Shown here: piece by piece, positions 1-18,893 of the stretch | Layout of the letters: every line of letters begins with the position of its first letter | How positions within the stretch are numbered: the stretch's first letter is position 1 | Assembly: GCA_021108075.1 (NCBI GenBank) | Contig: JAIORP010000135.1 | Span: 87,938-151,937 of the forward strand | DNA length: 64,000 bases | Reading direction: 5' to 3' | Source of the DNA: Candidatus Omnitrophota bacterium | Lineage (GTDB): Bacteria > Omnitrophota > Gorgyraeia > Zapsychrales > Zapsychraceae | Notes under the pieces: model-generated | The model's database searches: none | What the model was told of the DNA's origin: nothing | The model's input: only the letters and a program-made list of their open reading frames with translations | Program-made: the position numbers and the translations under genes

Positions 1-26
1 ATTCACAAAACAGTCATTTCAACCAA

Positions 27-1979
27 TTGACCCTTCAAAAAAAGCAAATCTCTGAACTCAATAAAGAAAATGTCAACTTAGAATCTGAAAATAGCGACAT
101 GCAACGACAGATCAAATCCATACAACAGAGCAATAAAAACATCCTCCAGTCGGTAAAATCCAAAATGCTTGAAGATATCCGTTTTTTACAATCTGAGAAC
201 GACTCCTTACAGGAATCGCAGGACAAAAAATCGAACCAGGTCGCGAGGGATTCAGAAAAGACAATCAGCCAGTTAACGCAAAAACTGAAAAGTGCAAACA
301 TGTCGTTCGCGACGCAAAAAAAAGAAATGCAATCCATTCAAGAAAAAAATAAAAACATCCTCCAGTCGGTAAAATCCAAAATGCTTGAAGATATCCGTCT
401 TTTACAATCTGAGAACGACTCCTTACAGGAATCGCAGGACAAAAAATCGAACCAGGTCGCGAGGGATTCAGAAAAGACAATCAGCCAGTTAACGCAAAAA
501 CTGAAAAGTGCAAACATGTCGTTCGCGACGCAAAAAAAAGAAATGCAATCCATTCAAGAAAAAAATAAAAACATCCTCCAGTCGGTAAAATCCAAAATGC
601 TTGAAGATATCCGTCTTTTACAATCTGAGAACGACTCCTTACAGGAATCGCAGGACAAAAAATCGAACCAGGTCGCGAGGGATTCAGAAAAGACAATCAG
701 CCAGTTAACGCAAAAACTGAGCAAAGCCAACATATTCATATCGGAACAAAAAGAAAAAATACTGTCCATTCAACAAAAAAAAGATACCCTAAACAATGAT
801 ATCCGGCGATATGCAGAAAAAGAGCAACAATTACGCAAAAAAATTGCCCGGGTTCGAAAATCTATGGAGAATCAAAGCCAAGCTGTAAAAACTGAAATCG
901 ATAAAGCGAACAAACCCTTGCTTGAAAAAATCAACAACTACGAAACCAGGATAAAAAAGACTAAATCGATGGCAAACCTAAAATTGAAAGACATACAAGA
1001 AGATCTCCAGGCTCAAATATCAAACCTGAACAACAATCTCGATCAAGCCCGACACGTTGTTATCCAGAAAAATCATAAAATTGACGAATTGCACCAAAAT
1101 TTTACTGATATAAAAAATAAATTCGACCAGGGAGAAAACGATAAAAATCAAATCAATCAAAAGCTCCAATCGGCATTGAAGAAATTAAAATTAGACAAGT
1201 CCTCTTACCGTGAGCAGATAGACACCGAAAAAAAACCCCTTTTGGAAGAAATTGAACGGCTACGCGCGTCTTTCTCAAGCAAAGAGGCCCAGTGGCAAAA
1301 CAAAATTAAGGTAGAAATCAACCCATTACTGGAACAAATAAAAAAATTAGACAATGAACTCAATAGCAGCTCCCAAAAATTTCATGTTAAGGAACAAGAA
1401 ATACGTCAATTAAACGTGAAAAGCTCTGAAATGAAAAAAAATTTAACGGATCAGCGTTCCCTTCAAAACAAATTAGAGAATGAAATCAGTTCACTGCAGG
1501 ATAAATTTCTCCGGCAAAAAGACCGCACAAATCAATTGGTCCGCGAACGCGAATCGCCTTTACTTGAAAAAATTCAATCACTTCAAAATCAGTTAGAAAA
1601 ACAAAAAATAAACCCTCTGAAAAAAAATAAAAAGACATTAAAAGAGTACCAATCAAAAATCAACAAACTCCAAGCTCACCTGGATCAGACCAAAAAAATC
1701 TTAAACCAAAAATCAGACCAAAACAATTCTTTGGAATCTAAAATGAAAAAATTAAGCAATGAATTAAGTCTGATCTCCAAAGACAAAAAATCATTGCAAG
1801 ACACCTTACGCTCACTCGAAAATCAAATTTCTTCCCTACACACAGAGCACGCAATGAATATAAGGAAACAGAAAGAAAAAAGTATTCAGCTTGAACGCAA
1901 CTTATCACGGCAGCAAATTGACTATAAAGAAATATCTGAAGAAGTTACGAACGCCCTTGAACTCTTACAAGTACCATAA
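27..1979 (+). CDS. Coiled-coil protein with internal 72-aa tandem repeats. Probably 5'-partial: the frame is open to the window edge and 27 is a TTG.
   Basis: 650-aa ORF rich in Q/K/E/L heptad-like sequence (myosin/SMC-like). No stop upstream in frame back to nt 3. Three near-identical 72-aa units. Confidence 0.5.
   Translation: MTLQKKQISELNKENVNLESENSDMQRQIKSIQQSNKNILQSVKSKMLEDIRFLQSENDSLQESQDKKSNQVARDSEKTISQLTQKLKSANMSFATQKKEMQSIQEKNKNILQSVKSKMLEDIRLLQSENDSLQESQDKKSNQVARDSEKTISQLTQKLKSANMSFATQKKEMQSIQEKNKNILQSVKSKMLEDIRLLQSENDSLQESQDKKSNQVARDSEKTISQLTQKLSKANIFISEQKEKILSIQQKKDTLNNDIRRYAEKEQQLRKKIARVRKSMENQSQAVKTEIDKANKPLLEKINNYETRIKKTKSMANLKLKDIQEDLQAQISNLNNNLDQARHVVIQKNHKIDELHQNFTDIKNKFDQGENDKNQINQKLQSALKKLKLDKSSYREQIDTEKKPLLEEIERLRASFSSKEAQWQNKIKVEINPLLEQIKKLDNELNSSSQKFHVKEQEIRQLNVKSSEMKKNLTDQRSLQNKLENEISSLQDKFLRQKDRTNQLVRERESPLLEKIQSLQNQLEKQKINPLKKNKKTLKEYQSKINKLQAHLDQTKKILNQKSDQNNSLESKMKKLSNELSLISKDKKSLQDTLRSLENQISSLHTEHAMNIRKQKEKSIQLERNLSRQQIDYKEISEEVTNALELLQVP
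117..719 (+). repeat. Intragenic tandem repeat, 216-bp unit x about 2.8 copies. Copies 2 and 3 look identical; copy 1 differs at a few positions.
   Basis: Unit starts at 117, 333 and 549. Protein repeat SIQEKNKNILQSVKSKMLEDIRLLQSENDSLQESQDKKSNQVARDSEKTISQLTQKLKSANMSFATQKKEMQ. The mirror-image 71-aa ORFs on the - strand are a repeat artefact. Confidence 0.9.
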
Positions 1980-2260
1980 ATTATTAAACAACAAAAGCTT
2001 ACCAAAACAAACGCAAACAGCATCTAAACTGCTTCCGCCATCAGTTTAATAATTATCATTGTAACCGATACCATTCAAATGTTGCCATTATTTAACATTT
2101 CATAACATCCTCTCAGCCAAATAGGCCACAAATCCGTTCCGGCGACAAGCCCGGCATGACCAAATTATTGAAACGAGTTGTTCGCCCATTAGACCCCCTC
2201 AGCGTGCTGTATAATGGCCGACAAAAAATTTCTTCCTTCGATAAATTTTCTTGAATTGGC

Positions 2261-2289
2261 TTGACTAGCCATTTCCTTTAATATATTTT
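2261..2289 (+). promoter_or_regulatory. Candidate sigma70-type promoter for the downstream glycan operon
   Basis: TTGACT at 2261-2266, 17-nt spacer, TATTTT at 2284-2289. About 36 nt upstream of the 2325 start. An upstream TG+TATAAT element sits at 2208-2215. AT-rich region, so weak. Confidence 0.25.
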
Positions 2290-2324
2290 AAGTATAGTAT
2301 TATTACTATTAATAAAGGTTTACC

Positions 2325-3503
2325 ATGAATTTCATTTTATTGATCACAACGAAAATACGTGACCTGCTCCATATAAGAAACTTTAATATTATCATTACGA
2401 TCATCCCCATATTAACTTTTCTCCTGTTGCTGTATCTATATATCCTGACCCGTTATGAACATCTTATTAGCGCCATCGTATTTTGTCTGATTCCAGCCAT
2501 TTTCGCGTTTTTTTACGTCCTCATATTAACGCCTCTCGTTATCTTTATCGCTCAAAAAACAAAAATCATGGATCAAACCACTTGCCACGATCTTGACAAA
2601 AAACCGACACCCTTATTAGGCGGTGTGAGCCTGTATTTATCTTTTGTCCTTGTCGGATTGCTGTATTTACCTTTTACACCTCAATGGAAAAGCATTTTAA
2701 TCGCATCCTCAATTATTTTTGTTATCGGAACCATTGATGACATTCGGCCATTATCATCGACCATCAGACTTTTCGGACAAATTTCCGCATCTTTTATTAT
2801 TATGTCCAGTGGATTGATGGTTTCCTTTATGCCCGATAATTTCTGGGGATCAGTCGCTTCGGTCCTCATCACGCTTATTTGGATCCTGGGAATCATCAAT
2901 GCGACAAATTTTTCTGATGGAGTGGACGGATTAGCGGCCGGCATCATTGTCATCGCGGCCTTGTTCTTTTTCTTCATCACGTTGCACCTGGGGCAATATC
3001 ATGTTTCTTTAATTTGTACGATACTCATAGGTTGCGGAATGGGTTTTCTTGTTTTCAATTTTAAACCAGCAAAAATATATCTCGGTGATGGCGGAAGCAC
3101 ATTTTTGGGATTCCTCATTGCGTCAATCGCCCTCTATGGCGAATGGTCAAGCCGTGGCCCAATCATCGCGTTAGGGATACCTGTTCTTATCCTCGGCGTT
3201 CTCATTTTTGACATGATCTACATAACGTTTAGCCGTATTCGCAATGGTCACGTTAACAATTTTAAAGAGTGGCTTGACTATACAGGCCGCGATCATTTTC
3301 ATCATCGGCTTATAAACTTAGGATTCTCTGAAAAAAATTCTGTCATTTTCATCTACATCGTTTGCATTGTTTTAGGAATTAGCGCCTTACAAATAGAGAA
3401 CGCTCGCTTAAGTTATCCGGTCGTCATTCAATTAATTCAATCAACCTTAATTTTTCTCCTTATTATCATGCTTATGCTCATGGGGCGTAAATTATCAAAT
3501 TAA
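2325..3503 (+). CDS. Polyprenol-phosphate:HexNAc-1-phosphate transferase, glycosyltransferase family 4 (WecA/MraY/WbpL family). Initiating enzyme.
   Basis: Polytopic membrane protein with the MraY/WecA signature NATNFSDGVDGLAAG, a DDIRPLS motif and a C-terminal basic/His region. Confidence 0.85.
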   Translation: MNFILLITTKIRDLLHIRNFNIIITIIPILTFLLLLYLYILTRYEHLISAIVFCLIPAIFAFFYVLILTPLVIFIAQKTKIMDQTTCHDLDKKPTPLLGGVSLYLSFVLVGLLYLPFTPQWKSILIASSIIFVIGTIDDIRPLSSTIRLFGQISASFIIMSSGLMVSFMPDNFWGSVASVLITLIWILGIINATNFSDGVDGLAAGIIVIAALFFFFITLHLGQYHVSLICTILIGCGMGFLVFNFKPAKIYLGDGGSTFLGFLIASIALYGEWSSRGPIIALGIPVLILGVLIFDMIYITFSRIRNGHVNNFKEWLDYTGRDHFHHRLINLGFSEKNSVIFIYIVCIVLGISALQIENARLSYPVVIQLIQSTLIFLLIIMLMLMGRKLSN

Positions 3504-3507
3504 AGAC

Positions 3508-4566
3508 ATGGCTAAAACAATAAACACGCATAAAAAGGGATTCATTCTTTTTTTAGTTCTGATCGTTTTGATCAGCAATTTGCTAACTTTTTTCGTTTCT
3601 TTATACCAAACCGCATTGCTCGAACATAAAAACATACTTCAAAATATGCGCCACACCTTGGGTGAACTGCGGCGCATTGGTAGCGATTCCGATAACATTC
3701 CGACATCGATCAATCCTCCCTTTATCACGTATGTCATCGATCAAAAAGAAGGCACCTTCTTAGTCCCCAGAGCCGTTCCTTTTGTTCGAAAAAAAAAGGA
3801 TCTCTGGGACTATCATATGACAAAGCTCATCTACCAAATGCAAAAGCAAAAAGAAGGTGAGATCCATTACCCCAAGGAATCCGGTTTACGTGACTGGATA
3901 AAAGGCAATAATACCATCCTATTTACGACCCTGTCTGAGAAGGGATGGATCATCGCCATCGAGGTTTATATGGAAAGCCCCATACAAATTTTTAAATCAC
4001 GGATCAACAAAACACTCATTCTCAATGTTTTATCCATTTTATTTTTTTCCGCTCTCTTAATGGTGCTCTTTGTAAACCGTAAATTAATTGTTTTAAGTAA
4101 ACTCATCTCTGACAATCTAGAAAGCGGATTAGTTCAGATGAATACCGCATCTGAATGGTCTGAGTCCATGATCAAACAGGACCCGACGCCTGAGATTGAG
4201 CCCGGGTCATCAGAAATAAACATCGTCCCGACTGATCACGTTCTTAACATTGAATTATCACAAAACATCGAAAAACCTGATGACACGACAGCACCACTGG
4301 GGTTGACGCTGAATTCTCCTCAGGCAAGCTCACCGCTATCAGATGCAGAGACAGAAAATTCTTTTGAACCGCAACTTCAAATAAAAACAAAACCGACTCA
4401 AAGGATTGCTCATCCGGCTAAACCTAAACCAAAGAAAAAATTACGTAAAAATATTTCTCAAAGAACCAAATCAGGACCGGACTATAATGATTTGACACTC
4501 AACTTGCAGGAGATCAAATCCCCCGTTCTAAAAAAAATGATCAACAAAATTCGAAATAATAAATAA
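3508..4566 (+). CDS. Hypothetical bitopic/double-TM protein with a disordered S/P/E-rich and basic C-terminal tail
   Basis: Predicted TM helices near aa 10-35 and 170-195. About 130 aa lie between them (possible periplasmic domain). No recognisable catalytic motif. Confidence 0.4.
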   Translation: MAKTINTHKKGFILFLVLIVLISNLLTFFVSLYQTALLEHKNILQNMRHTLGELRRIGSDSDNIPTSINPPFITYVIDQKEGTFLVPRAVPFVRKKKDLWDYHMTKLIYQMQKQKEGEIHYPKESGLRDWIKGNNTILFTTLSEKGWIIAIEVYMESPIQIFKSRINKTLILNVLSILFFSALLMVLFVNRKLIVLSKLISDNLESGLVQMNTASEWSESMIKQDPTPEIEPGSSEINIVPTDHVLNIELSQNIEKPDDTTAPLGLTLNSPQASSPLSDAETENSFEPQLQIKTKPTQRIAHPAKPKPKKKLRKNISQRTKSGPDYNDLTLNLQEIKSPVLKKMINKIRNNK

Positions 4567-4575
4567 AGGCTAAAT

Positions 4576-5397
4576 ATGTATACAGAATATTGGGGATTGC
4601 GGGAAAAGCCGTTTGAATTAACGCCTGATCCGCGCTATGTGTACTATTCCAGAGAACATGAAGAGGCGCTAACAGGACTTTTTTATACGGTACAGGAGCT
4701 TAAAGGCGCTATGCTGTTAACAGGATTATATGGATGCGGGAAGACGATCCTTAGCCGCGTCTTTCTGAATGAACTCATTGGATCAAAATACGAAGTTGCC
4801 TTAATCACGAATCCTCGCTTAACGGCCAATGAGTTATTAACAGAAATGATTTACCAACTAGGCGGTGGTCTTCACGAAACAGCCTCAAAAGGTGAATTGC
4901 TCCGCATATTCAATGAATTAATTTATTCGAACATCAATATCGGTAAAGAAACAATCATCGTCATTGATGAAGCCCAGTCCATTGAAGACATCGAAACATT
5001 TGAAGAATTACGATTACTACTAAACTTTCAGCAAAATGACCGTTTTCTGCTAACCATGATCCTGATTGGACAATCGGATCTCCGCAAACGTTTGAAACAA
5101 CTGCCCCAATTGAAACAACGGCTCATGATTGACTATCACCTAAACCCGTTAGATGAGCAAGACGCTATCCGATATATCGAACACCGCTTAAATATCGCTG
5201 GCGCGCAAAACAAAATATTTGACTTGAAAGCGAAAAAAATGATGTACCGTCAATCGAGTGGAATCCCGCGCGTCATTAACGGCATAGCCGACATGGCTTT
5301 GTTTGAAGGGGCGAATCAGGAGACGAAATTGATTGATGACCAATTGATCTTGAAAATTTCAAAAAATTTACAGTTTGAAAAACCGCAAAGAATATAA
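4576..5397 (+). CDS. ExeA/GspA-like AAA+ ATPase (the putative secretion ATPase type found in PEP-CTERM EPS loci)
   Basis: Walker A GLYGCGKT and Walker B IVIDEAQ. Size and N-terminal YWGLREKPF motif are typical of ExeA-like ATPases. Confidence 0.75.
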   Translation: MYTEYWGLREKPFELTPDPRYVYYSREHEEALTGLFYTVQELKGAMLLTGLYGCGKTILSRVFLNELIGSKYEVALITNPRLTANELLTEMIYQLGGGLHETASKGELLRIFNELIYSNINIGKETIIVIDEAQSIEDIETFEELRLLLNFQQNDRFLLTMILIGQSDLRKRLKQLPQLKQRLMIDYHLNPLDEQDAIRYIEHRLNIAGAQNKIFDLKAKKMMYRQSSGIPRVINGIADMALFEGANQETKLIDDQLILKISKNLQFEKPQRI

Positions 5398-5404
5398 AAA
5401 TATT

Positions 5405-6352
5405 ATGCCGGCAAAAAAACCTGAAAATCAAAAAAACAAATCCTCCTCACCAGCAGCGTTGTACATTGAGTTATTTGAGACTGTCCGCGACACATTAACG
5501 AAATCTATTAATAAGACGCAAATTGAGGACATCATTTCCAGAATCACCGGCCATTTCATGAAGTGGCCGTATAATGACCTGCTGCTATATACGTATACTT
5601 ACTCAAAATCAAACTACATTATGGCACACATTTCCAACAATGTTATCTTGAGCATCGGATTTGGTCATAACATCGGTTTATCGCAGGATGATCTTATTGA
5701 ATTAGGAACATGCGCTTTTTGTCATGATTTCGGAATGGCTGAATACATTCACCTTTTTCAAAAAGGCCACCAGCTAACAGAAGAAGAAAATAAAATGATT
5801 AAGAATCACCCCCGAAAATCAGCGGACTTTTTTAAAGACCTGTATTCAGACAGAATCATTAAAGTCATGCTCGACGTCCATGAAAATGTAAACGGTTTGG
5901 GTTATCCCAGCGGGAAATCAGGCATAGAAATTTCTTTTTTTGCGAAAATCATTTCGATCTGTGATGTCTTTGAAGCCTTAACGCATCCCCGCAATTTTCG
6001 CAAAGAATTCAACCCCTATGAAGCTATTAAAATTATCATCAAGAAAAAAAATATCATCTTTGACGACAAAGTCTTAAAAAAATTTGTGGAATTTATGTCC
6101 ATCTATCCCATTGGTTCCATCGTCTACCTGAATACCGGAGAGATCGCCATTGTCACAGCCAGCAACAAAGGCTACCCAACACGGTCCATCGTTCAAATAT
6201 TGTTAAACCCAAAAAAAGAAATTGATAAAAACCACCGCACGATTGACCTCCTGAAAGACGATATGGTTTATATCATCGCACCGGTTGAACCAAAAATTGA
6301 AAAAGAAATCATTCAAGTCCTTAAACCGAGAGGGAACTTTAACCTTCAATAA
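5405..6352 (+). CDS. HD-GYP domain protein (putative c-di-GMP phosphodiesterase or sensor)
   Basis: HD motif CHDFGM and HENVNGLGYPSG (HHExxDGxGYP-like). The track start 5375 is a TTG overlapping the upstream gene; ATG at 5405 preferred. Confidence 0.6.
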   Translation: MPAKKPENQKNKSSSPAALYIELFETVRDTLTKSINKTQIEDIISRITGHFMKWPYNDLLLYTYTYSKSNYIMAHISNNVILSIGFGHNIGLSQDDLIELGTCAFCHDFGMAEYIHLFQKGHQLTEEENKMIKNHPRKSADFFKDLYSDRIIKVMLDVHENVNGLGYPSGKSGIEISFFAKIISICDVFEALTHPRNFRKEFNPYEAIKIIIKKKNIIFDDKVLKKFVEFMSIYPIGSIVYLNTGEIAIVTASNKGYPTRSIVQILLNPKKEIDKNHRTIDLLKDDMVYIIAPVEPKIEKEIIQVLKPRGNFNLQ

Positions 6353-6358
6353 AACCTC

Positions 6359-7168
6359 ATGAAAAAGACCATATTTCTAATTCTAATCATACTGCTTTCA
6401 AGCATTCTGCCTCCTTCCGGATGGGGGCAGTCGTCCCGCGACTTTTATATTGAAGAACATCAAAAATCCATTATGAACGAGACCCCGGCGGGACAGGATC
6501 AAAGGACATCGTCAAACAACGCTAAATACAAAAGTGAAGAAGATTTAATCATTCGACAACTCGAAATTATAACAGGCGATGAAGAAACTCGTTATATCAT
6601 CGTGCCTGGAGACACATTGTCCATCTATTACAATGACCGTAACAAACGGCCAGGAGCAGCTTATGTCGTCAACAGCAAAGGTGAAATTCAAATGCCGCTC
6701 ATTGGAGCTGTAAAAATTTCAGGACTGAACAGAAAGGACTCCCGCGAGAAGACAAATGAACTCCTCAGCCAATATATCCGCAAACCGGACGTCGACCTAC
6801 GCATCAATGTTGCTGGTCGATTCATGGTGATCGGGGCGGTACACACCCCGGGTGTGTACCGCATCGAACAAAACCTGACCATTTTAGAAGCGATATACAA
6901 TGCGAGAGGGCCTGTTGAAAATAAAGCAAAAATGAATAGTGTCCTGCTCATCAGAGGAGGGAAGGACAACCCGGTTATCACCCGGCTGGATTTAAAAAAA
7001 GTGCTAAAAAAAGGCGATCAAACTGACAACGTCTTACTTAAGCCAGGTGACATGGTTTTTGTTCCGACATCATTTATTTTTCACTTAGATCAATTCCAGA
7101 AAACCATGTACCGGCACATTCTAACCTATTATGGATTAGGTGGCACGGTACCGCTAAAAAATCCTTAG
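6359..7168 (+). CDS. Polysaccharide export protein, OPX family (Wza/GumB-like: Poly_export + SLBB)
   Basis: Signal peptide, then IVPGDTLSIYY...GEIQMPLIGAVKISGL Poly_export motif, followed by an SLBB-like region. Confidence 0.75.
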   Translation: MKKTIFLILIILLSSILPPSGWGQSSRDFYIEEHQKSIMNETPAGQDQRTSSNNAKYKSEEDLIIRQLEIITGDEETRYIIVPGDTLSIYYNDRNKRPGAAYVVNSKGEIQMPLIGAVKISGLNRKDSREKTNELLSQYIRKPDVDLRINVAGRFMVIGAVHTPGVYRIEQNLTILEAIYNARGPVENKAKMNSVLLIRGGKDNPVITRLDLKKVLKKGDQTDNVLLKPGDMVFVPTSFIFHLDQFQKTMYRHILTYYGLGGTVPLKNP

Positions 7169-7192
7169 TGATTATGTCGTTCTTATAATATT

Positions 7193-9460
7193 ATGGAAAA
7201 TCCCGAAATCACCTTATCAGAATATTGGCGAATCATACGGAAACGAAAATGGACCATCATTTCAGTCTTCATTACTGTCTTCCTTTCGACCGTTATCTTC
7301 ACAAAATTGCAAACACCGGTCTATCATTCCGCGATTGAAATCAAAATAGAAAAACAGCAACCGTTGTTAGCAGATAGCACGACAGGGGCCCTGACGGTCC
7401 AGACAGGTGCGGCTTTAAACTTAGCGACAGAAATCCGATTAATTAAGAGTTTACCCGTATTGCGCAAAGTTGTTGAGAAAATTGAAGTCCTGCCTCCAAC
7501 GGGCGAAGAGAGAGAAAATGCCATCCATTCAATCGCGTTACAGTACCAAAAAAACGTTCAAGCTGATCAGATTGCCGATACCAATATCATCAATATTCAA
7601 GTCTTTTCCAACGACCCCCAAACAGCAACGCTCATGGCCTCAGCTATAGCGGATGTCTATATTGTGGAAAACATCGAAGGCCGCAAAAAACAACTCAAAG
7701 CCATGATTGAATTTATTGACAAACAACTGACAGCCTACAAAAAATCCCTCGCCGATCAAGAATCCGATTTACAAAAATTCAAACAGAATGAAAAGGTTTT
7801 TGAAGTCACACCGGATATCAAAGCTACGCTTGATCGGTCAACAATTGAAGGAACATTTGAATTTGAGACAGAAATGCTTAAGATCGACTCCGACCTCAAA
7901 AAGTTAAAAAAAGTTTTGCAAAATAAATCTGAAACAAATATGGGACAAATCATTTCAGAAAAAAACCTATCAGAAAACTATATTTTTGTCGGGCTGAAGA
8001 GACGTCTGTTAGAACTTGAATTCGAACGGTTCTTGCTATTGATTGACTATACGGAACGTCACCCTGACGTTGTTATTAAAAATCAAATCATCGGAAATAT
8101 CAAAGAAAAAATTGTTATTATGTTAAAAAACTTTTCATCTATACCCATTACCCTTGAGGTAGAAACAGATTTGGCGCTCTACATAAAAAAACTGTTCCTC
8201 GAAACGAGAAGAGAAGTCCTCTACCGCATTGTTAACCGTTTCTATGGTGACTCCGGGTCCCTGTCATCCAACCAATTGCAGTACGTCCGTTTAAAACGAA
8301 ATGTCGACCGGTTGCTCAATTCTTACGATAATTTTCTAAACAAAAGGACCGAAGCCCGGCTTGACTTATCCAAGGTTATTGATGACGTTGTGACCGTCGT
8401 CTCTCCCGCCACTAAACCCGAGACCCCCATTAAACCGAATGCAAGGGTCAATTATCTCGTAGCAACCGCTGTGGGCATTCTTTTAGGAATATTGATCGCG
8501 TTCTTGAAGGAAAGTGTCGATACATCCGTATCCACGATCTCTGACGTTGAACAGGATTTAAAACTGAATATCCTCGGTATTGTTCCACACATGAAAAAAG
8601 AAGAGGTCCTCACTGGTAAGGAGGATCTGCCTGAAGGGCATATCACAAAAAAAATGATCTTACAACGGGCCCGTCTGGTAACGATAACATCCCCTAAATC
8701 CTGGCACTCTGAAAGCATCAAGATGATCCGCACAAATTTGATGCAACTGAATAAAAACAAAAACATCAAATGCGTCCTGTTCACTAGCTCGGATAAACAG
8801 GAAGGGAAGTCAACGATGGTGACAAATCTGGCCTTATCCATTGCTCAGCTAGGCAAAAAAATTATTCTGGTTGGCGGGAACATGCGCCGGCCGACCGTAT
8901 ATAAAATTTTTGGGCTCAATCGCGAACCAGGGCTGTCGGACGTGCTGATGGGTAATACCAAATGGAAAAATGTTGTCAACACCTCAACGGACATACTGAC
9001 TGGCGGACTGAATGTTGATCAATTATTGCATATGCCCGGCATCGATAACTTGAGTGTCTTAACATGTGGGCGCCCGGTCGATAATGTCTCTGAACTCCTC
9101 AACTCAAAAGATCTGGACCTCTTGTTAAAAGAATTACGATCAGAATTTGATATCATTATCATGGATTGCTCTCCTGTTATGGCCGTTCCGGATGCCATCA
9201 CGCTTTCAGACAAAGTCGATGGAATGGTCTTAATATATAAGGTTGGCCATACCCCGAAAGATGTTCTCAAAATGGCCAAAAACAACCTGACACACGCCAA
9301 TGCCAATATATTGGGTGTTGTGCTCAACGACATTAAAACAGAAGCCCAGGTCGGGTATTCGGCTTATTACTACCGCTACTATAGCGAAACCGGCAGCAAA
9401 CCGCAAAAAAAACCAACACCTCCATCAAAAAGTGGCAATAAAAATATTTTTAATATTTAG
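7193..9460 (+). CDS. Polysaccharide co-polymerase / chain-length determinant fused to a BY-kinase domain (Wzc-like tyrosine autokinase)
   Basis: N-terminal TM + Wzz-like coiled region, second TM near aa 420. C-terminal P-loop SSDKQEGKSTMVTNLA (Walker A'), DxD Walker B. Tyrosine cluster SAYYYRYY near the C-terminus. Confidence 0.8.
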   Translation: MENPEITLSEYWRIIRKRKWTIISVFITVFLSTVIFTKLQTPVYHSAIEIKIEKQQPLLADSTTGALTVQTGAALNLATEIRLIKSLPVLRKVVEKIEVLPPTGEERENAIHSIALQYQKNVQADQIADTNIINIQVFSNDPQTATLMASAIADVYIVENIEGRKKQLKAMIEFIDKQLTAYKKSLADQESDLQKFKQNEKVFEVTPDIKATLDRSTIEGTFEFETEMLKIDSDLKKLKKVLQNKSETNMGQIISEKNLSENYIFVGLKRRLLELEFERFLLLIDYTERHPDVVIKNQIIGNIKEKIVIMLKNFSSIPITLEVETDLALYIKKLFLETRREVLYRIVNRFYGDSGSLSSNQLQYVRLKRNVDRLLNSYDNFLNKRTEARLDLSKVIDDVVTVVSPATKPETPIKPNARVNYLVATAVGILLGILIAFLKESVDTSVSTISDVEQDLKLNILGIVPHMKKEEVLTGKEDLPEGHITKKMILQRARLVTITSPKSWHSESIKMIRTNLMQLNKNKNIKCVLFTSSDKQEGKSTMVTNLALSIAQLGKKIILVGGNMRRPTVYKIFGLNREPGLSDVLMGNTKWKNVVNTSTDILTGGLNVDQLLHMPGIDNLSVLTCGRPVDNVSELLNSKDLDLLLKELRSEFDIIIMDCSPVMAVPDAITLSDKVDGMVLIYKVGHTPKDVLKMAKNNLTHANANILGVVLNDIKTEAQVGYSAYYYRYYSETGSKPQKKPTPPSKSGNKNIFNI

Positions 9461-9471
9461 AGAGTCTTAGC

Positions 9472-10962
9472 ATGAGTTATGCCGGCCGTGAAAAAATTTT
9501 AATCCTTTCGATATTTCTCTTCTGCATCATACTGGCTAAAATTATCACGGAGACGTCTTATCTTGTTCCCTTAATGATCATCATCAGCATCACGGGTTTT
9601 TTGATCGCCTTCACACATACGCACATGGCCATGATCTTTCTTATTTTCTCCATGTTATTATCCCCGGAGTTAATCGTCGGAAGTGTGACGAAAAGAGACA
9701 TCGTTATCCGAATAGACGACTTATTGATCCTTGTCTTTAGTCTCGCATGGATCGCCCGGTCCGCTATCAATAAAAATTTAACGATCATAACCAAGACCCC
9801 GATCAACCGCTTTATTGCCTTTTACTGCTTTATGTTTTCTTTAAGCACGATTAACGGGATTCTCTTTGAAACAGTCAGCCCCTTCAAGGGGATATTCTAT
9901 ATACTTAAATATATTGAATATTATTTTATTTTTTATCTCGCCGCAGGGATCTTAAAAAATAAGCCCCAGATGAAAACCTATATCAAAGCCATTATCATCA
10001 CCTATGCGATCGTTAATATTTACGCTTTCCTGCAAATCGGCACGCACGGCCGTGTTTCCGCACCCTTCGAGGGGAAGGTAGGGGAGCCGAACACATTAGG
10101 CGGCTATCAGGTCTTAATATTGGGGATCATTATTGGCTTATTAACTCATACAACCTTTTCGCCGAAATGGAAATGGACACTAATCCTCGTCGCCCTGTTT
10201 TCTCTCATCCCTTTCGCCTATACGTTATCACGTTCCGCTTACATGTCCATAATTCCGATGTATTTCACCCTGATTTTTTTCAACAAATCAAAAAAAAGGA
10301 ATATTCTGATTGGAATTTTGATCATTTGTGTCATTGTGTCGATTTTCTTTTTCCCTCAGAACATCAAAGACCGTATCAAGTACACGTTTATCCCGCATCC
10401 CCAGGAGCATATTGAACCTGTAAAATTTCTCGGAGTCAGCCTCGGCCCTTCAGCGTCAGCACGTATTCAGGACTGGATAAGGGTCTATAAAAAATGGCAA
10501 AACAAACCCTTCCTAGGGTATGGCGTGACCGGTATGGGTTTTCTGGATAGTCAATTTATTAGAACTTTTGTCGAGTTAGGACTCCTGGGGTTCTTCGCGT
10601 TCTGCGCCCTGTTATTGAGCATCGGATATCACACGTTAAAAATTTACAAAACAACCAAAGATCCTTTCTACAAAGGATTATCCCTTGGCTTCTTTGCGGC
10701 GCACTTAGGCATGATTGCGCATGCCATCACAGCGAACACCTATATCATCATCCGCATCATGGAACCTTACTGGTTCTTGGCCGCCATGGTCATGTGCATT
10801 CCCCGTCTGGAGGCCCGGCATCAACAGGCTTTGATCATGAATCAGGAACAGGCTCAACTGGAAGATGACGAAGAGGGGGTTCCTTTACTGAAAAAGCCCA
10901 ATTACAACATCGCGCATTTACTGAACTACAGCAATGTCAAACATAAGGACCATCATTATTAA
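9472..10962 (+). CDS. O-antigen ligase / Wzy_C-domain polytopic membrane protein (putative O-glycosylation ligase or polymerase)
   Basis: At least 10 TM helices. Wzy_C-type motifs YTLSRSAYMSI and KPFLGYGVTGMGF. Confidence 0.65.
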   Translation: MSYAGREKILILSIFLFCIILAKIITETSYLVPLMIIISITGFLIAFTHTHMAMIFLIFSMLLSPELIVGSVTKRDIVIRIDDLLILVFSLAWIARSAINKNLTIITKTPINRFIAFYCFMFSLSTINGILFETVSPFKGIFYILKYIEYYFIFYLAAGILKNKPQMKTYIKAIIITYAIVNIYAFLQIGTHGRVSAPFEGKVGEPNTLGGYQVLILGIIIGLLTHTTFSPKWKWTLILVALFSLIPFAYTLSRSAYMSIIPMYFTLIFFNKSKKRNILIGILIICVIVSIFFFPQNIKDRIKYTFIPHPQEHIEPVKFLGVSLGPSASARIQDWIRVYKKWQNKPFLGYGVTGMGFLDSQFIRTFVELGLLGFFAFCALLLSIGYHTLKIYKTTKDPFYKGLSLGFFAAHLGMIAHAITANTYIIIRIMEPYWFLAAMVMCIPRLEARHQQALIMNQEQAQLEDDEEGVPLLKKPNYNIAHLLNYSNVKHKDHHY

Positions 10963-10974
10963 AGGCTTAAAAAC

Positions 10975-11853
10975 ATGAATCCGATCAATCAAGAAACAAC
11001 ATCCTCATACCAAATCCACATCCGTCCGAATAAAAGCTGGCATCACATGAATTGGCATGCGATATGGGAATACCGTGACCTGCTTTTTTTGCTGGTACGG
11101 CGTGATTTCGTATCCAAATATAAACAGACTATTCTCGGGCCGTTATGGTTTATCCTCCAGCCATTGGCAACGACCATTGTTTTCACGGTTGTCTTTAGCC
11201 GTGTCGCCCGCATCCCAACGGATTCCATTCCGCCCATGTTATTTTATCTTTGCGGGTTAATCGGCTGGATGTATTTTGCGAACTGTCTTAATTACACATC
11301 GACGACATTTGTTACGAACGCCGGAATCTTCAACAAAGTTTATTTCCCGCGCTTGATCATCCCGTTTTCTGTTATCATTTCCCGTTTTCTTGCCTTTATC
11401 ATCCAATTTGTCATGTTCATCGGATTTTATATTTTTTATAAATTTTTTACCCCCGCGTCTGATACGTTTCATTTAAACCCCGCGGCACTGATATTCTTTC
11501 CCTTGCTGATTATGCTCACAGCTTTATTAGGATTGGGCATGGGACTCTGGTTATCCGCTTTAACAGCAAAATACCGTGATTTAACACAATTAACGACCTT
11601 CTTAACCTCTTTGTGGATGTACGCGACACCCGTTATTTATCCCTTGTCGCTCATACCGGCCAAATGGCATAAAGTGATGGCCCTTAATCCCATGGCGGGT
11701 ATCGTCGAAGCTTATCGTTACTGTTTCTTCAGCGTCACTGTTGGGAATTTATTTTTTTACATGCTCAGTTCCATCATAATGACGCTGATCATCCTTATTT
11801 CCGGTATATTAATTTTCAATAAAACTGAACGTAATTTTATCGATACAATATAA
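10975..11853 (+). CDS. wzm: ABC-2 type polysaccharide exporter permease (Wzm/KpsM/TagG family)
   Basis: 6-TM ABC-2 permease. N-terminal ILGPLWFILQPLATTIVFTVVFSRVA is typical of Wzm. Confidence 0.85.
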   Translation: MNPINQETTSSYQIHIRPNKSWHHMNWHAIWEYRDLLFLLVRRDFVSKYKQTILGPLWFILQPLATTIVFTVVFSRVARIPTDSIPPMLFYLCGLIGWMYFANCLNYTSTTFVTNAGIFNKVYFPRLIIPFSVIISRFLAFIIQFVMFIGFYIFYKFFTPASDTFHLNPAALIFFPLLIMLTALLGLGMGLWLSALTAKYRDLTQLTTFLTSLWMYATPVIYPLSLIPAKWHKVMALNPMAGIVEAYRYCFFSVTVGNLFFYMLSSIIMTLIILISGILIFNKTERNFIDTI

Positions 11854-11857
11854 AAAC

Positions 11858-13186
11858 ATGAAACCCATCATTGAAATAGAAAAATTATCAAAACTGTACC
11901 GCCTGGGGAGTATCAGCGCGAACACATTCCAGGATTCACTGAAAAACTGGTTTCACCGTATTAAAAATAGCCCTCCTGCGACCGCCGATAAATCCTCTTC
12001 GCGTTTGATGATTGATCCTAACGACCCTCAGGCCGGGCCAGAACCCAATACCCTGTGGGCGCTCAGAGACATTTCTTATGAACTCCAGGAAGGGGAAATC
12101 CTCGGGATTATCGGACGCAATGGTGCCGGTAAATCGACGCTGCTCAAAATCCTGACCCAGATTACCGAACCAACCTCTGGCCAGGCTGTCCTGCGCGGCC
12201 GAACAGCGTCTTTATTAGAAATTGGCACGGGATTTCACCCTGAACTAACGGGCCGCGAAAACATCTATTTAAACGGGGCTATACTTGGAATGAAAAAAAA
12301 AGAAATTGATTCCAAATTCGAAGAAATTGTCGACTTTTCAGGCATTCCCAAATTCATCGATACACCTGTCAAACGATACTCCAGCGGCATGTATGTTCGC
12401 CTGGCTTTTGCGGTCGCGGCCCATCTCGAACCGGAGATACTGTTAGTTGATGAAGTATTGGCCGTGGGAGATGTCGAATTCCAGAAAAAATGTTTGGGCA
12501 AGATGAAAAATGTTTCAAAGAGCGGCCGGACAATCCTGTTTGTCAGTCACAATATGCAAGCGATCAAGCAATTATGTACCCAAACGATCATCCTTGACAA
12601 AGGACGAATGATATTCAGCGGCAGCGCGGAGTCCGCGGTGGATAAATATTTAGGTGACGGGTTGTCACTAAAAGGCGAACAAATCTGGGATCATACTCAG
12701 ACCGCGCCAGGCGATGATATCGTTCGTGTCCATTCTGTGCGCGTCATGAACACCGATAACCGTTCGCGCACGCAATTCGATGTTCGTGATCCGATGACAA
12801 TTGAGTTAAAATATACTGTTTATGAAGATGGACATCAACTTGCCACTCAGATCTACTTGTTTAATGATGCCGGCCAGGTTATTTTAAACACGAAAGACAA
12901 CAAAGACTCCCCCTGGGGAGATCGTTGCATCCCAAAAGGCTCCTATTGCGCGCGCTGTACGGTTCCAGCAGACCTGATCAATGAAGGACAGATATCTATC
13001 GGCATCGGTATCGGAACGGTCGGGCCGTCTTATTTCATCGGGCACGTCACAATATATGATGCTGTTATATTCGCCGTGACAGATGCTTTTGATCCAGAGG
13101 GAGTGAGGGGTAACTATCCCTTCGAATGGAAAGTGGGCGACATCCGCACGCACATCCCATGGAAGGTGGAGCGCCTTGAAAACTAA
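11858..13186 (+). CDS. wzt: ABC transporter ATP-binding protein Wzt with a C-terminal glycan-binding (Wzt_C-like) extension
   Basis: Walker A GRNGAGKST, signature YSSGMYVRLAFA, Walker B LLVDEVLAVGD. About 190-aa beta-rich C-terminal extension beyond the NBD. Confidence 0.85.
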   Translation: MKPIIEIEKLSKLYRLGSISANTFQDSLKNWFHRIKNSPPATADKSSSRLMIDPNDPQAGPEPNTLWALRDISYELQEGEILGIIGRNGAGKSTLLKILTQITEPTSGQAVLRGRTASLLEIGTGFHPELTGRENIYLNGAILGMKKKEIDSKFEEIVDFSGIPKFIDTPVKRYSSGMYVRLAFAVAAHLEPEILLVDEVLAVGDVEFQKKCLGKMKNVSKSGRTILFVSHNMQAIKQLCTQTIILDKGRMIFSGSAESAVDKYLGDGLSLKGEQIWDHTQTAPGDDIVRVHSVRVMNTDNRSRTQFDVRDPMTIELKYTVYEDGHQLATQIYLFNDAGQVILNTKDNKDSPWGDRCIPKGSYCARCTVPADLINEGQISIGIGIGTVGPSYFIGHVTIYDAVIFAVTDAFDPEGVRGNYPFEWKVGDIRTHIPWKVERLEN

Positions 13187-14012
13187 TTCTATCAAACAAG
13201 CCGTCAAACGCTATCCGTGGATGCATAAACCTTTAAAAGCAGGATACTCCTGTTACAACGGCTTAAAAAATTTTCTGTTGCGCCGATTTCCATATTTAGA
13301 TTACCAATGCACTCTTTGGGGCAACAAACCCTATTACGGAACCTTCTTGATGGCCGGACAAATTTTACCAGCACGTAAATATGTCATGCGGGATATGATC
13401 CGGCGAGAATTGATGCAAACCGTTCGTTCTGACTTTACCCTGCTCGAGATCGGATCATGGGCTGGCTTATCCACATCCATTTGGGCGCAAGAATGTCAAC
13501 ATCAATCAAAAGGCACGGTCTTCTGTATCGATACATGGGAAGCATCTTTGAATGTTCCCGAAATCATGCAAAAAGCCGCGAAAAGGAATCGGATTTACAA
13601 GCTGTTTCAGCACAACATGAGATGCTCAGGTTATGAGAACATTGTTTTTCCCATTAAGGCTTCAAGCGATGTCATGCATAATATCCTCAAGCCGCAATCC
13701 TTTGACCTTATTTTCATCGACGGGGATCATGCCCACACGCAGTTCAAGAAAGATTTGATCAACTATATGCCGTTGATCAAAGACAAGGGCATTATTTGCG
13801 GTGATGACCTTGAGCATTTGCCCCAGGACATTGATTTGGGCTTCGCGCGTAATCACCTGGAAGAAGATTACATCGAAGACGCCTCAAACAATCAAAAATA
13901 TCATCCGGGGATAGCTGTGGCCATCCAGGAAGTCTTTGGTTCTGTCAGCATGAAAGAGGGGTTCTGGGCCATGCGGAAAATCGGACCGGAGTGGCATAAA
14001 GTAGCGTTCTAG
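13176..14012 (+). CDS. Class I SAM-dependent methyltransferase (Methyltransf_24/CmcI-like). Candidate chain-terminating O-methyltransferase.
   Basis: LLEIGSWAGLS glycine-rich motif and FIDGDHAH motif. Start uncertain: TTG at 13176 or ATG at 13221. Confidence 0.55.
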   Translation: MKTNSIKQAVKRYPWMHKPLKAGYSCYNGLKNFLLRRFPYLDYQCTLWGNKPYYGTFLMAGQILPARKYVMRDMIRRELMQTVRSDFTLLEIGSWAGLSTSIWAQECQHQSKGTVFCIDTWEASLNVPEIMQKAAKRNRIYKLFQHNMRCSGYENIVFPIKASSDVMHNILKPQSFDLIFIDGDHAHTQFKKDLINYMPLIKDKGIICGDDLEHLPQDIDLGFARNHLEEDYIEDASNNQKYHPGIAVAIQEVFGSVSMKEGFWAMRKIGPEWHKVAF

Positions 14013-14037
14013 CGTAAATTTAACACAGGGATATCAC

Positions 14038-15219
14038 ATGAAGACATTTTCAAAACTGACCGGTCGCTTACTTGGACAACCGATGTTCCATCTTTTAGAA
14101 AAAATTGAACGATTTAAAAAAGCCGGCCGGGATATCATCCATCTGGAAATCGGTGATGCCGACTTCCGCGCGCACCAACACATCATTGATGCAACAAAAA
14201 ACGCGCTTGATGCCGACAAGACGCATTACGTCAATTCCATGGGGCTGAATGAACTCCGGGACGCTATTTGTGAATATACGCTGCAAACCCTGGATTTTCG
14301 GCCCCGGAGGGAACAGGTTCTTGTTATGCCGGCACATGCCATCATCGACACGCTTATCCGGTGTGTTGCTAATCCAGGAGATGAAATTATATGCCCTGAG
14401 CCGGGATTTTCAAGTTATCATGCCGTGCTGACATATTTGAATCTAAAAAAAACTTCCATCCCTTTAAAAGAAGAAAATAAATTCTGCCTGCAAGCCGCTG
14501 ATATCGAGCCTAAAATCCATGATCACACACGATTGCTCATCATCACATCACCGAATAATCCAACCGGTTCCGTTTTATCAAAAAAACAAGTCCGGGATAT
14601 CGCTTTACTGTGTCAACAAAAAGACATCTACCTTTTAAGTGATGAAATATATTCCCGCGTGATTTATGAAGGGCAACACTATTCCTGTAGTTTTCTGGAT
14701 CAATGCCGTGAAAGAACAATTATTTTAAACGGTTTCGGGAAATCATTTTCCATGCCGGGATGGAGACTTGGTTATGCCATCGGACCGGTAGACTTAATCC
14801 AGAAAATGGGACTGTTATTTCAAACGATTTATTCCTGCTGTTCGCCGTTCAATCAATACGGGGCCATTGAAGCTTTGACAGGAAACCAGGAGGTTGTTGA
14901 GGCCAGAATAAAAACATATAAATCCCTGCGGGATTTCATCCTCTCAGAAATCAATGATATCCCCGGGATAACATGCACCGCCCCTAAAGGCGCCTTTTAT
15001 ATTTTTCCGAATATCAAAGAAACCGGCCTAACAAGTGCGGCGTTTGCCGATTATATGCTGAAAAAAGCTGATGTGGCCTTATTACCCGGAACACATTTTG
15101 GGCAAACAGGCGAGGGCTATGTCCGCATTTGTTTCACAAAAAAACAAGACGAACTTCACAGAGCGTGTGAACGGATCAGAAACGCCTTAAAGGAGAGGGT
15201 GCAATGCGACCAATTCTAA
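14038..15219 (+). CDS. PLP-dependent aminotransferase, class I/II (AspAT fold)
   Basis: NGFGKSFSMPGWRLGY (SxxK lysine motif) and an overall class-I aminotransferase layout. Confidence 0.8.
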   Translation: MKTFSKLTGRLLGQPMFHLLEKIERFKKAGRDIIHLEIGDADFRAHQHIIDATKNALDADKTHYVNSMGLNELRDAICEYTLQTLDFRPRREQVLVMPAHAIIDTLIRCVANPGDEIICPEPGFSSYHAVLTYLNLKKTSIPLKEENKFCLQAADIEPKIHDHTRLLIITSPNNPTGSVLSKKQVRDIALLCQQKDIYLLSDEIYSRVIYEGQHYSCSFLDQCRERTIILNGFGKSFSMPGWRLGYAIGPVDLIQKMGLLFQTIYSCCSPFNQYGAIEALTGNQEVVEARIKTYKSLRDFILSEINDIPGITCTAPKGAFYIFPNIKETGLTSAAFADYMLKKADVALLPGTHFGQTGEGYVRICFTKKQDELHRACERIRNALKERVQCDQF

Positions 15220-18140: not shown

Positions 18141-18158
18141 CACTATCAGGAGGCTATT

Positions 18159-18893
18159 ATGTCAGTATTTAATTTTCAAAATAAAACCGCGGTCGTAACA
18201 GGGGGAACACGCGGTATCGGCCGAGCGGTCGCGAAAGGTCTCCTCGAATCAGGAGCAAAAGTGATCGTAACGGGCACAAAGGAATCACCCGCCTGGTTAA
18301 ACAACTATCCCCGGGCACAGCATATGACATTAGACTTTCTTAAAGAAAACAGCCTGTCATCATTTATGGCGTCGTTTCCACCGGAACAGGCGGTCGACAT
18401 TCTCATTAATAATGCCGGTATCCACATACCAAAACCTTTTACAGAACTAACACAACAGGACTGGGAAGATATCATGAGAATCAATATTATCGGCCCGGCA
18501 GATCTCATCAATAAAATGATCCCCTTTATGCGAAAAAATGTGTCCGGAAACATCCTCAATATGAGTTCGATCGCTGGATTCATCGCCCGTCCGGGATCAA
18601 CGGCTTACTCGGCGAGCAAATCCGCCTTAAATGCTTTCACCCGGTCACTCGCTTTAGAACTGGCAAAGGATAACATCAAGGTTAACGCTCTTTGCCCTGG
18701 AACAACAGAAACAGATATGGTTAAAGAACAAATGGATGAAGACCGGCGCAAACATTTTCTATCACTTATTCCGATGCAGCGTTTTGCCCTTCCTGAAGAA
18801 ATCGCCCAATGGGCTTTGTTCCTTTGTTCAGACTTGAATACTTATATGACCGGGCAAACGGTCATTGTGGACGGCGGGGCAACCATACAATAA
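18159..18893 (+). CDS. Short-chain dehydrogenase/reductase (FabG-like SDR)
   Basis: TGGTRGIGRAVA Rossmann motif and YSASK catalytic motif. Strong AGGAGG-like RBS. Confidence 0.85.
   Translation: MSVFNFQNKTAVVTGGTRGIGRAVAKGLLESGAKVIVTGTKESPAWLNNYPRAQHMTLDFLKENSLSSFMASFPPEQAVDILINNAGIHIPKPFTELTQQDWEDIMRINIIGPADLINKMIPFMRKNVSGNILNMSSIAGFIARPGSTAYSASKSALNAFTRSLALELAKDNIKVNALCPGTTETDMVKEQMDEDRRKHFLSLIPMQRFALPEEIAQWALFLCSDLNTYMTGQTVIVDGGATIQ

Follow-up and report, generated by a model that had tools for sequence, protein, structure and literature searches.

Surface glycans of Gram-negative bacteria are assembled by three textbook routes, Wzx/Wzy-dependent, ATP-binding cassette (ABC)-dependent and synthase-dependent, each with its own partner proteins. 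Loci for exopolysaccharides (EPS) associated with the exosortase XrtA carry an initiating transferase of the Bac_transf type (TIGR03013) and not of the WecA type. Clusters that combine an AAA+ ATPase with a protein for outer-membrane polysaccharide export (OPX) and a polysaccharide co-polymerase (PCP) have been tied to PEP-CTERM systems (PMC11340318; bioRxiv 10.64898/2025.12.21.693542), and the promonan cluster of Sphingomonas runs porin-Wza-AAA+ ATPase-Wzz-kinase-Wzy (PMC11340318). Here we describe a block of genes at positions 2325-13186 of a 64-kb stretch of an Omnitrophota genome (contig JAIORP010000135.1; the whole stretch is called the window) in which an OPX/PCP core with a Wzy_C-family protein is joined to a Wzm/Wzt ABC exporter. 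An earlier note on this sequence (the original prediction) had pointed out that PCPs carrying a bacterial tyrosine (BY) kinase and exporters of the Wzt type usually belong to different routes, and this textbook point holds. We found no description of this Omnitrophota cassette in the searched literature, which yielded general reviews and studies of genome-wide co-occurrence in cyanobacteria only. With moderate confidence, we take the block to be the conserved 5' core of one co-directional surface-glycan operon of ~48-50 kb. That this operon serves a single pathway, in which Wzm/Wzt would feed a cytoplasmically completed, capped polymer on undecaprenyl pyrophosphate (Und-PP) to a core of PCP-2a, OPX and Wzy_C proteins, seems to us an even call.

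Open reading frames (ORFs) of the window were assigned to families by hidden Markov model (HMM) searches against Pfam and NCBIfam (TIGRFAM) with their curated cutoffs (Table 1). Nine co-directional ORFs on the + strand span the block, in the order WecA, X352, AAA, HD, OPX, PCP(BY-kinase), Wzy_C, Wzm, Wzt(Wzt_C), and they lie at the coordinates stated with the original prediction. Neighbouring genes from 2325 to beyond 13186 overlap or are separated by 4-24 nt, and only 12 nt lie between Wzy_C and Wzm. The co-directional unit proposed earlier is therefore present, and the HMMs place its WecA-type, AAA, OPX, PCP/BY-kinase, Wzy_C, Wzm and Wzt products in the families that had been named for them. 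The earlier inventory was incomplete, however, as it had overlooked X352 and the gene for an HD-GYP-like protein. Judging from position only, the operon likely starts at the 345-nt gap upstream of the WecA gene. A scan of the region for promoters and terminators returned site counts no higher than those of shuffled sequence and is uninformative either way. Given the 12-nt spacing of Wzy_C and Wzm, no terminator or promoter signal above chance, and a junction that is kept even in relatives with a PCP only 50-65% identical, the two halves of the block are not separable.

Table 1. Features of the window, with family matches where one was found (aa, amino acids; TM, transmembrane)
Feature	Position (nt)	Strand	Remarks
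Coiled-coil protein	27-1979	+	Near-identical ~70-aa repeats; upstream of the block
Gap before the block	1980-2324	+	The one sizeable gap between genes (345 nt), upstream of 2325
Weak sigma-70-like site	2261-2289	+	TTGACT-17-TATTTT, inside the 345-nt gap
Polyprenyl-phosphate HexNAc-1-phosphate transferase, WecA/MraY family	2325-3503	+	PF00953 Glycos_transf_4, 129 bits
X352, 352-aa membrane protein	3508-4566	+	No Pfam or NCBIfam family above threshold
Cytoplasmic AAA_22 (ExeA/GspA-like) ATPase	4576-5397	+	PF13401, 71.5 bits
HD-GYP-like protein (HD_5)	5405-6352	+	PF13487, 77.3 bits
Short OPX, 269 aa	6359-7168	+	Poly_export PF02563 and SLBB PF22461
PCP-2a with fused BY-kinase	7193-9460	+	Wzz, GNVR and AAA_31 P-loop domains
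Wzy_C-family polytopic enzyme	9472-10962	+	PF04932, 42 bits (cutoff 31.7)
Wzm, ABC-2 permease	10975-11853	+	PF01061 ABC2_membrane, 83.9 bits
Wzt, ABC ATPase	11858-13186	+	PF00005 ABC_tran, 81.5 bits; PF14524 Wzt_C, 36.3 bits (cutoff 30.4)
Variable glycan-specific region	13176-42443	+	Methyltransferases, sugar-nucleotide pathway, ~13 glycosyltransferase domains
Unusual sugar-nucleotide pathway	14038-24982	+	Run of sugar-modification genes
Triple methyltransferase, 695 aa	26877-28964	+	Methyltransferase domains
WbqC-like protein, NAD-epimerase/dehydratase, PIG-L deacetylase	42446-44841	+	Conserved accessory set, with DegT
674-aa membrane protein	44838-46862	+	~13 TM segments, no family
DegT-family aminotransferase	48925-49980	+	PF01041, 291.8 bits
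Secreted 775-aa Gly/Asn/Thr-rich repeat protein	50925-53252	+	PEP-CTERM-like tail: VVPEP, TM stretch, RKKRSR

The block shares parts with each of four described systems. As in XrtA EPS and promonan loci, an AAA-type ATPase gene accompanies the OPX and PCP genes (it lies between Wza and Wzz in the promonan cluster), a Wzy_C-family gene follows the PCP gene, and the PEP-CTERM TIGRFAMs are the top-scoring models. In contrast to those loci, the window has its PCP and kinase fused, a WecA-type initiator, an ABC exporter in the place of Wzx, no exosortase, EpsI or beta-barrel porin gene, and scores under the trusted cutoffs. ABC-dependent O-polysaccharide systems whose Wzt reads a cap (E. coli O8/O9a; Aquifex aeolicus, 7k2t/8dku) resemble the window in WecA-type initiation, in Wzm and a Wzt with a Wzt_C domain, and in the presence of possible capping methyltransferases and a WaaL-fold enzyme. 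However, the canonical route uses neither an OPX protein nor a BY-kinase PCP and delivers its product to lipid A-core and Lpt, whereas the window encodes an OPX protein and a PCP-2a in the same conserved operon and has its Wzy_C gene tied to the PCP gene. With the Wzx/Wzy group 1/4 systems (Wza-Wzc/Etk-Wzy-Wzx) the window shares a PES- and SLBB-containing OPX protein, a PCP-2a that has Walker motifs as well as a C-terminal tyrosine cluster, and a Wzy_C-family enzyme beside the PCP; related cassettes of other phyla also have a MOP flippase. It differs from them in having no Wzx in 64 kb and no match to a Wzb-type phosphatase, a short OPX protein with a single SLBB domain, a Wzy_C protein far more conserved than a typical Wzy, and additional AAA_22 and HD-GYP-like proteins. 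Finally, the group 2/3 capsule systems (KpsMT, the PCP-3 KpsE, KpsD) follow the principle proposed here, an ABC exporter working with a PCP plus an OPX protein, and have conserved genes flanking a variable region. In those systems the PCP-3 has no kinase, unlike the PCP-2a of the window, and assembly uses a lyso-phosphatidylglycerol-Kdo linker, whereas the window has initiation of the WecA/undecaprenyl phosphate type, a Wzt that carries Wzt_C and no KpsC/KpsS (Capsule_synth). With no PCP-3 and no KpsC/S, membership of the Kps-type capsules is ruled out.

To compare the block with related loci, we used 80 genome loci from the PCP alignment, at least 80 metagenome loci from the Wzy_C alignment (mostly of other phyla, adding few Omnitrophota) and several Pfam-annotated contexts, and mapped their genes with HMMs derived from proteins of the window. 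Loci are cited by our own numbers. The block recurs in 13 of the 14 assessable related loci, and the order in this Omnitrophota clade is coiled-coil gene, WecA, X352, AAA, HD, OPX, PCP, Wzy_C, Wzm, Wzt. Wzm/Wzt directly follows Wzy_C in L009, L011, L012, L014, L015, L018, L093, L094, L115, L173, L174 and L175, and comes after a 5-kb insert in L010. This conserved synteny rules out a chance juxtaposition of two export halves.

Within the clade, core proteins are 42-77% identical to those of the window (AAA ATPase, 65-77%; WecA, 50-65%; PCP, 47-65%; Wzy_C, 42-62%), compared with 23-40% for Wzm, which nevertheless keeps its position. The C-terminal domain of Wzt is mostly not alignable between the window and the clade. 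Wzt_C itself is kept: it exceeds the Pfam threshold in the window and in L009 (precomputed annotation) and in L010, L011, L012, L014 and L018 (scan), while precomputed annotation lists it weakly in L174 and not in L173 or L175. Because the core is so much more similar than Wzm, and the Wzt C-terminus diverges although Wzt_C is retained, the pattern suggests a constant machine served by a glycan-specific, laterally exchanged exporter, with the junction between Wzy_C and Wzm. Most close relatives have a Wzm and Wzt less similar to the window's than are their counterparts in one Methylomirabilota and two Neomarinimicrobiota loci (36-39% and 43-46%).

Outside the clade, the OPX-PCP-Wzy_C core is found in Desulfobacterales and other Thermodesulfobacteriota, Thermodesulfovibrionia, Latescibacterota, Methylomirabilota and Neomarinimicrobiota. 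Many of these loci, chiefly of the Desulfobacterales type, have WecA, HD, AAA, OPX, PCP and Wzy_C, often after WbqC-PIG-L-DegT; others, including all those of Neomarinimicrobiota, have only OPX-PCP-Wzy_C within the fetched flanks. We tallied exporter genes lying at most 6 kb downstream of Wzy_C in the 88 assessable loci outside the Omnitrophota genome set. Among the matches listed, 36 loci have a MOP flippase there, eight have Wzm, one has both, and 43 have neither. L093, L094 and L115, which belong to the eight Wzm loci, have Wzy_C proteins 52-60% identical to that of the window and are counted with the Omnitrophota clade; the match of L115 is partial. For the other five (L031, L077, L099, L102 and L162), the nearest neighbours, with Wzy_C proteins 46-77% identical, are of the flippase type. 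At the exact position occupied in L135, L150 and L166 by a 500-aa flippase, L162 has Wzm and a Wzt of 429 aa; the PCP, Wzy_C (66-67% identical) and the small gene that follows are orthologous among these loci. As this replacement occurs between orthologous cassettes, and the Wzm loci have flippase-type neighbours, we regard the two exporter types as interchangeable within one cassette family. The comparison suggests that flippase and Wzm/Wzt replace each other in this family, the swap to Wzm/Wzt being sporadic outside the clade, and that the ABC version was fixed in the Omnitrophota clade.

The exporter of the window is most similar, among solved structures, to those of A. aeolicus and other O-antigen/teichoic-acid exporters. 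Full-length A. aeolicus Wzt (8dku/7k2t) is the nearest solved structure for Wzt, whose carbohydrate-binding-type Wzt_C domain covers residues ~283-408. Wzm matches the galactan Wzm and KpsM models below cutoff (KpsM, 56.5 vs 300). Several methyltransferases encoded downstream could cap the chain, although these are candidate terminators only. Searches of the window ORFs with Pfam and NCBIfam found no MOP/Wzx flippase (Polysacc_synt/MOP) in the 64 kb, and an HMM built from 19 flippases of the compared loci found nothing at E<=10 with filters off. Nor did any ORF of the window match another initiating transferase, a phosphatase of the Wzb type, KpsC/S (Capsule_synth) or an exosortase; the WecA-type gene is its one initiating transferase.

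The products encoded at 6359 and 7193 fall within the OPX and PCP families, as had been predicted (Poly_export/SLBB and Wzz/GNVR/BY-kinase HMMs, respectively). The OPX protein scores 52.6 bits against PF02563 (cutoff 28) and 56.6 bits against PF22461 (cutoff 27), and its relatives in the Protein Data Bank (PDB) are 9n9a and Wza (2j58). A signal peptide is followed by a PES/D1 domain, a single SLBB/D2 domain and, at residues 243-259, a C-terminal helix that is conserved; D1, D2 and the helix are visible in an AlphaFold2 (AF2) model (pLDDT 79.6), and the 17-residue helix motif is kept across the alignment of relatives. No gene for a beta-barrel partner was found near it at the locus. One study described 535 short OPX proteins that lack a coupled barrel but have a C-terminal helix, and proposed that they function in the manner of Wza (Schwabe et al., PMC9601211). 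The PCP has TM segments at residues 21-39 and 419-437 around a periplasmic domain of ~380 aa. It exceeds the cutoff of the BY-autokinase model TIGR01007 (146.3 bits; cutoff 108), has a Walker A motif, GKST, at residue 538, and carries the tyrosine cluster YSAYYYRYY (residues 722-730, nt 9356-9382), confirming the description of this protein as a PCP-2a/BY-kinase with a C-terminal tyrosine cluster.

The Wzy_C protein has no relatives in the PDB by sequence search. A fold search with its AF2 model (pLDDT 82.6) placed WaaL nearest (7tpg; E 3e-6, TM-score 0.51/0.60), followed by FtsW and RodA, and no Wzy structure was among the matches; with a WaaL/SEDS-like fold match of this kind, ligase and polymerase are not separable by sequence or fold. 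Few glycan enzymes are as poorly conserved as Wzy polymerases. Across phyla, the Wzy_C protein is 34-44% identical, compared with 29-34% for PCP and 27-33% for OPX, and the PCP gene is directly upstream of it in 96 of the 99 assessable loci among the matches listed. Since Wzy_C is conserved more than PCP and OPX across phyla, and its model is nearest to WaaL, we think it likelier to be a ligase-type enzyme that uses a conserved acceptor than a serotype-specific repeat-unit polymerase.

Taken as one pathway, the operon would work as follows. The WecA-type transferase would prime undecaprenyl phosphate, the cytoplasmic glycosyltransferases of the variable region would assemble the complete chain, and its cap would come from one of the methyltransferases. 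The Wzt_C domain would then read the cap, and Wzm/Wzt, holding the place of the Wzx-type MOP flippase of related cassettes, would bring the polymer, linked to Und-PP, to the periplasmic side. There, the WaaL-fold Wzy_C protein would take the glycan off Und-PP, with ligase-type transfer to a conserved acceptor likelier than repeat-unit polymerisation. The PCP-2a/BY-kinase and the short OPX protein would pass the glycan through the periplasm and outer membrane, and the AAA_22 ATPase and HD-GYP-like protein would be conserved accessory or regulatory parts. We infer all of these biochemical steps, among them the passage of glycan from the ABC exporter to PCP/OPX and a ligase activity of Wzy_C. The original prediction had suggested a non-canonical route of this kind as one of two possibilities. 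It gains comparative support here from the occurrence of flippase or Wzm/Wzt at the same position of the cassette and from a window with no MOP flippase, while its biochemistry remains at the level of proposal. We favour one operon and one pathway because the genes are tightly packed, the junction is conserved, and there is one initiator, one exporter and no flippase. The same-position interchange of exporters, the conserved genes that bracket the variable region and a Wzy_C that stays linked to PCP with either exporter also argue for it.

Several points weigh against this reading. Co-transcription and conserved adjacency are no proof of a shared pathway, as a glycan island often contains two or more systems, and the searched literature gave no experimental precedent in which a BY-kinase PCP-2a cooperates with a Wzt exporter. 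One close relative (L016/L090) has no Wzm/Wzt within 8.5 kb. L076, a Neomarinimicrobiota locus, has Wzm/Wzt(Wzt_C) and a MOP flippase after a single PCP-Wzy_C pair (10335-18376); there, the ABC exporter is an addition and not a replacement, and the system is possibly a dual-chain one. With ~13 glycosyltransferase domains plus a heptosyltransferase-like gene of family GT9, the locus exceeds the usual need of one ABC-type polymer. As the OPX helix has only 17 residues, it is uncertain that it would span the outer membrane. Beyond the searched 64 kb, the genome may encode a Wzx, another WaaL or an exosortase, and a missing membrane step could reside in the 13-TM protein (44838-46862).

A more specific version of the single-pathway reading can be put forward only tentatively. 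A PCP-2a/OPX/WaaL-fold core present in several phyla would accept an Und-PP-linked glycan either from a flippase or from a cap-reading Wzm/Wzt, making the exporter an interchangeable module of which the Omnitrophota clade has fixed the ABC version. The BY-kinase PCP would gate a polymer of preset length, and Wzy_C would be a ligase to a conserved acceptor. The clade-conserved operon, together with repeated swaps from flippase to ABC exporter, suggests that the export core is independent of how the lipid-linked glycan gets to the periplasm. The operon blurs a textbook dichotomy, with a clean comparative signal, although all function is inferred from uncultivated genomes. If this is true, glycan gene clusters in metagenomes would need to be reclassified, the role of a tyrosine-kinase co-polymerase with a pre-made polymer would come into question, and modular parts would be available for glycoengineering. 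This is also the main surface-glycan locus of Omnitrophota, poorly known, ultra-small and possibly host-dependent bacteria for whose lifestyle the surface is likely central.

The alternative that survives best is that two glycans share one island, although we consider it unlikely. WecA, the glycosyltransferases, the methyltransferases, Wzm/Wzt and Wzy_C acting as WaaL would make an ordinary ABC-type O-antigen of lipopolysaccharide, and OPX, PCP, AAA and HD-GYP-like proteins would serve a different, Wzx/Wzy-type EPS whose flippase (and perhaps polymerase and glycosyltransferases) is encoded elsewhere. WecA, Wzm/Wzt(Wzt_C), a WaaL-fold protein, methyltransferases and GT9 do form a complete textbook O-polysaccharide set, and the many glycosyltransferases would suit two products. 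Exporters can evidently be distant, given the 43 of 88 non-clade loci with neither type within 6 kb of Wzy_C (among the matches listed); L016 has no Wzm/Wzt nearby, both types occur together in L076, a flippase is possible beyond the window, and the 13-TM protein has no family. Against it, the Wzy_C gene is tied across phyla to PCP and not to Wzm/Wzt, in the 96 of 99 loci (among the matches listed), and this with either type of exporter. The 64 kb have a single initiating transferase and no MOP flippase, flippase and ABC exporter are exchanged at the same position of orthologous cassettes, and the Wzy_C-Wzm junction is kept in 13 of the 14 clade loci.

It is improbable that the locus belongs to the XrtA/EpsH PEP-CTERM EPS systems, with Wzy_C an exosortase-associated O-glycosylation ligase acting on PEP-CTERM proteins. 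The original prediction had called the ATPase/OPX/PCP/Wzy_C set characteristic of such loci, and PEP-CTERM models (TIGR03015, TIGR03027, TIGR03007, TIGR03018) are indeed the top NCBIfam matches of the AAA ATPase, OPX and PCP; the literature also links AAA+ ATPase/OPX/PCP clusters to these systems (PMC11340318; bioRxiv 10.64898/2025.12.21.693542). All of these scores are well below the curated cutoffs, however, both in the window (TIGR03015, 216.5 vs 324.5; TIGR03027, 81.6 vs 180; TIGR03007, 116 vs 278.85; TIGR03018, 114.9 vs 230.65) and in cassette orthologues of other phyla (TIGR03015, 186-220). The fifth model, TIGR03097 for the exosortase-associated O-ligase, is not matched by the window Wzy_C at E<=0.01 and is matched weakly by that of L031 (40.8 vs 188.1). 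Neither an exosortase (EpsH/XrtA) nor EpsI was found among the ORFs of the 64-kb window. Asparagine synthases encoded after the core in L009, L090 and L173 passed the general asparagine-synthase model but failed the EpsI model TIGR03108 (283 vs 817). The membership proposed earlier thus fails, and the WecA-type initiator also departs from the Bac_transf type of XrtA loci. The weak L031 match and the presence of asparagine synthases after the core are hints in the other direction, and so is the secreted protein encoded at 50925-53252. Its tail, scanned alone, scored 19.3 bits against PF07589 (cutoff 20.7), and no TIGR02595 match was reported. PF07589 detects ~22% of known PEP-CTERM instances (PMC1569441). 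An exosortase may be encoded elsewhere in the source genome, as this tail implies. Across the ORFs of every fetched locus, only two PEP-CTERM-like tails were found, this one included. The description that best fits the cassette is that of a sister of the XrtA-associated export core and not a member of it.

We give little credence to a dual-chain arrangement, by analogy with the rhamnan-plus-side-chain cell-wall polysaccharides of Gram-positive bacteria (Lactococcus), in which an ABC-delivered backbone would be extended or decorated at the periplasmic face by Wzy_C and/or the 13-TM protein with separately delivered lipid-linked sugars before PCP/OPX export: the two polytopic enzymes besides Wzm, the large glycosyltransferase content, a PMT_2 gene in the variable region of L173 and the exporter pair of L076 would suit it, but neither another exporter nor a flippase that could deliver side-chain units is encoded in the window, no GT-C family is matched by the 674-aa protein, and the idea is speculation from gene content alone.

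The remaining proteins of the block were also examined. The WecA-type protein (~9-10 TM segments) scores 105.6 bits against TIGR02380 (cutoff 326), a match at the level of the family and not of the WecA equivalog. X352 has TM segments at residues 12-30 and 171-189 around a ~140-aa loop, a Pro/Lys-rich disordered tail and a sub-threshold match to Cache_3-Cache_2 (E 0.025). It is specific to the clade, where it always lies between WecA and the AAA ATPase, and is 20-27% identical in relatives. The AAA_22 ATPase is the best conserved protein of the block (37-42% identity in other phyla) and had no matches in a sequence search of the PDB. For the HD-GYP-like gene, the longest ORF starts from TTG at 5375; we used the ATG start chosen by gene callers on identical contigs, which gives 315 aa. 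The protein is likely a regulator linked to cyclic di-GMP. Because its motif is partly degenerate (CHD, then VHENVNGLGYP where HHExxDGxGYP is expected), it may bind cyclic di-GMP without cleaving it.

The variable region downstream of Wzt has glycosyltransferase domains of the GT2, GT4, GT9 and GT11 families. GC content increases from 0.39-0.43 in the core to 0.46-0.47 beyond ~12 kb; over positions 1-12000 and 12000-22000 the ranges are 0.36-0.43 and 0.44-0.47, respectively. This step fits a laterally exchanged variable region. The step begins within or after Wzt and, unusually, the variable part is the GC-richer one. The sugar-nucleotide genes at 14038-24982 encode a class I/II aminotransferase, an HMGL-like (homocitrate-synthase-like) enzyme, a split thiamine pyrophosphate-dependent E1 alpha/beta and a short-chain dehydrogenase/reductase; a cytidylyltransferase-cupin fusion, an inositol-monophosphatase-family protein and a GFO/IDH/MocA oxidoreductase; and a GmhA-like isomerase, a B12-binding radical SAM enzyme and an HddA-like GHMP kinase. 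Such gene content suggests that the product is a branched or C-methylated sugar of the heptose/nonulosonate type.

At the far end of the variable region, ~30 kb downstream, are the WbqC, PIG-L and DegT genes. In Desulfobacterales-type loci this trio is directly upstream of WecA (complete in L022, L029, L030, L032, L035, L042, L049, L057, L071, L072, L085 and L092; interrupted by the contig end in L044 and L046), and DegT orthologues (277-346 bits) adjoin WecA in other phyla. Since these genes stand beside WecA elsewhere and at the far end of the window here, conserved genes bracket a variable region that starts with Wzm/Wzt. The trio probably makes a conserved amino sugar for the core machinery. 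For the 674-aa protein, nothing was found in Pfam (E<=1), NCBIfam or the PDB, and an hhalign comparison with the Wzy_C alignment was negative. It may be a periplasm-facing glycosyltransferase or serve another membrane step. The PMT_2 gene in the variable region of the related locus L173 is of the GT-C class. Between this protein and the end of the locus are a nucleotidyltransferase, DegT and a further methyltransferase, then the secreted protein with the PEP-CTERM-like tail. The glycan locus is followed by housekeeping genes (citrate synthase, leucyl aminopeptidase, NfeD/SPFH and fumarase).

At the other end, the repeat-rich coiled-coil gene occupies the same place upstream of WecA in relatives, where its product reaches >2335 aa in L009, 1687 aa in L090 and >1394 aa in L173. 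All contigs with this locus break inside this gene. It may be related to the very long proteins reported for the phylum Omnitrophota.

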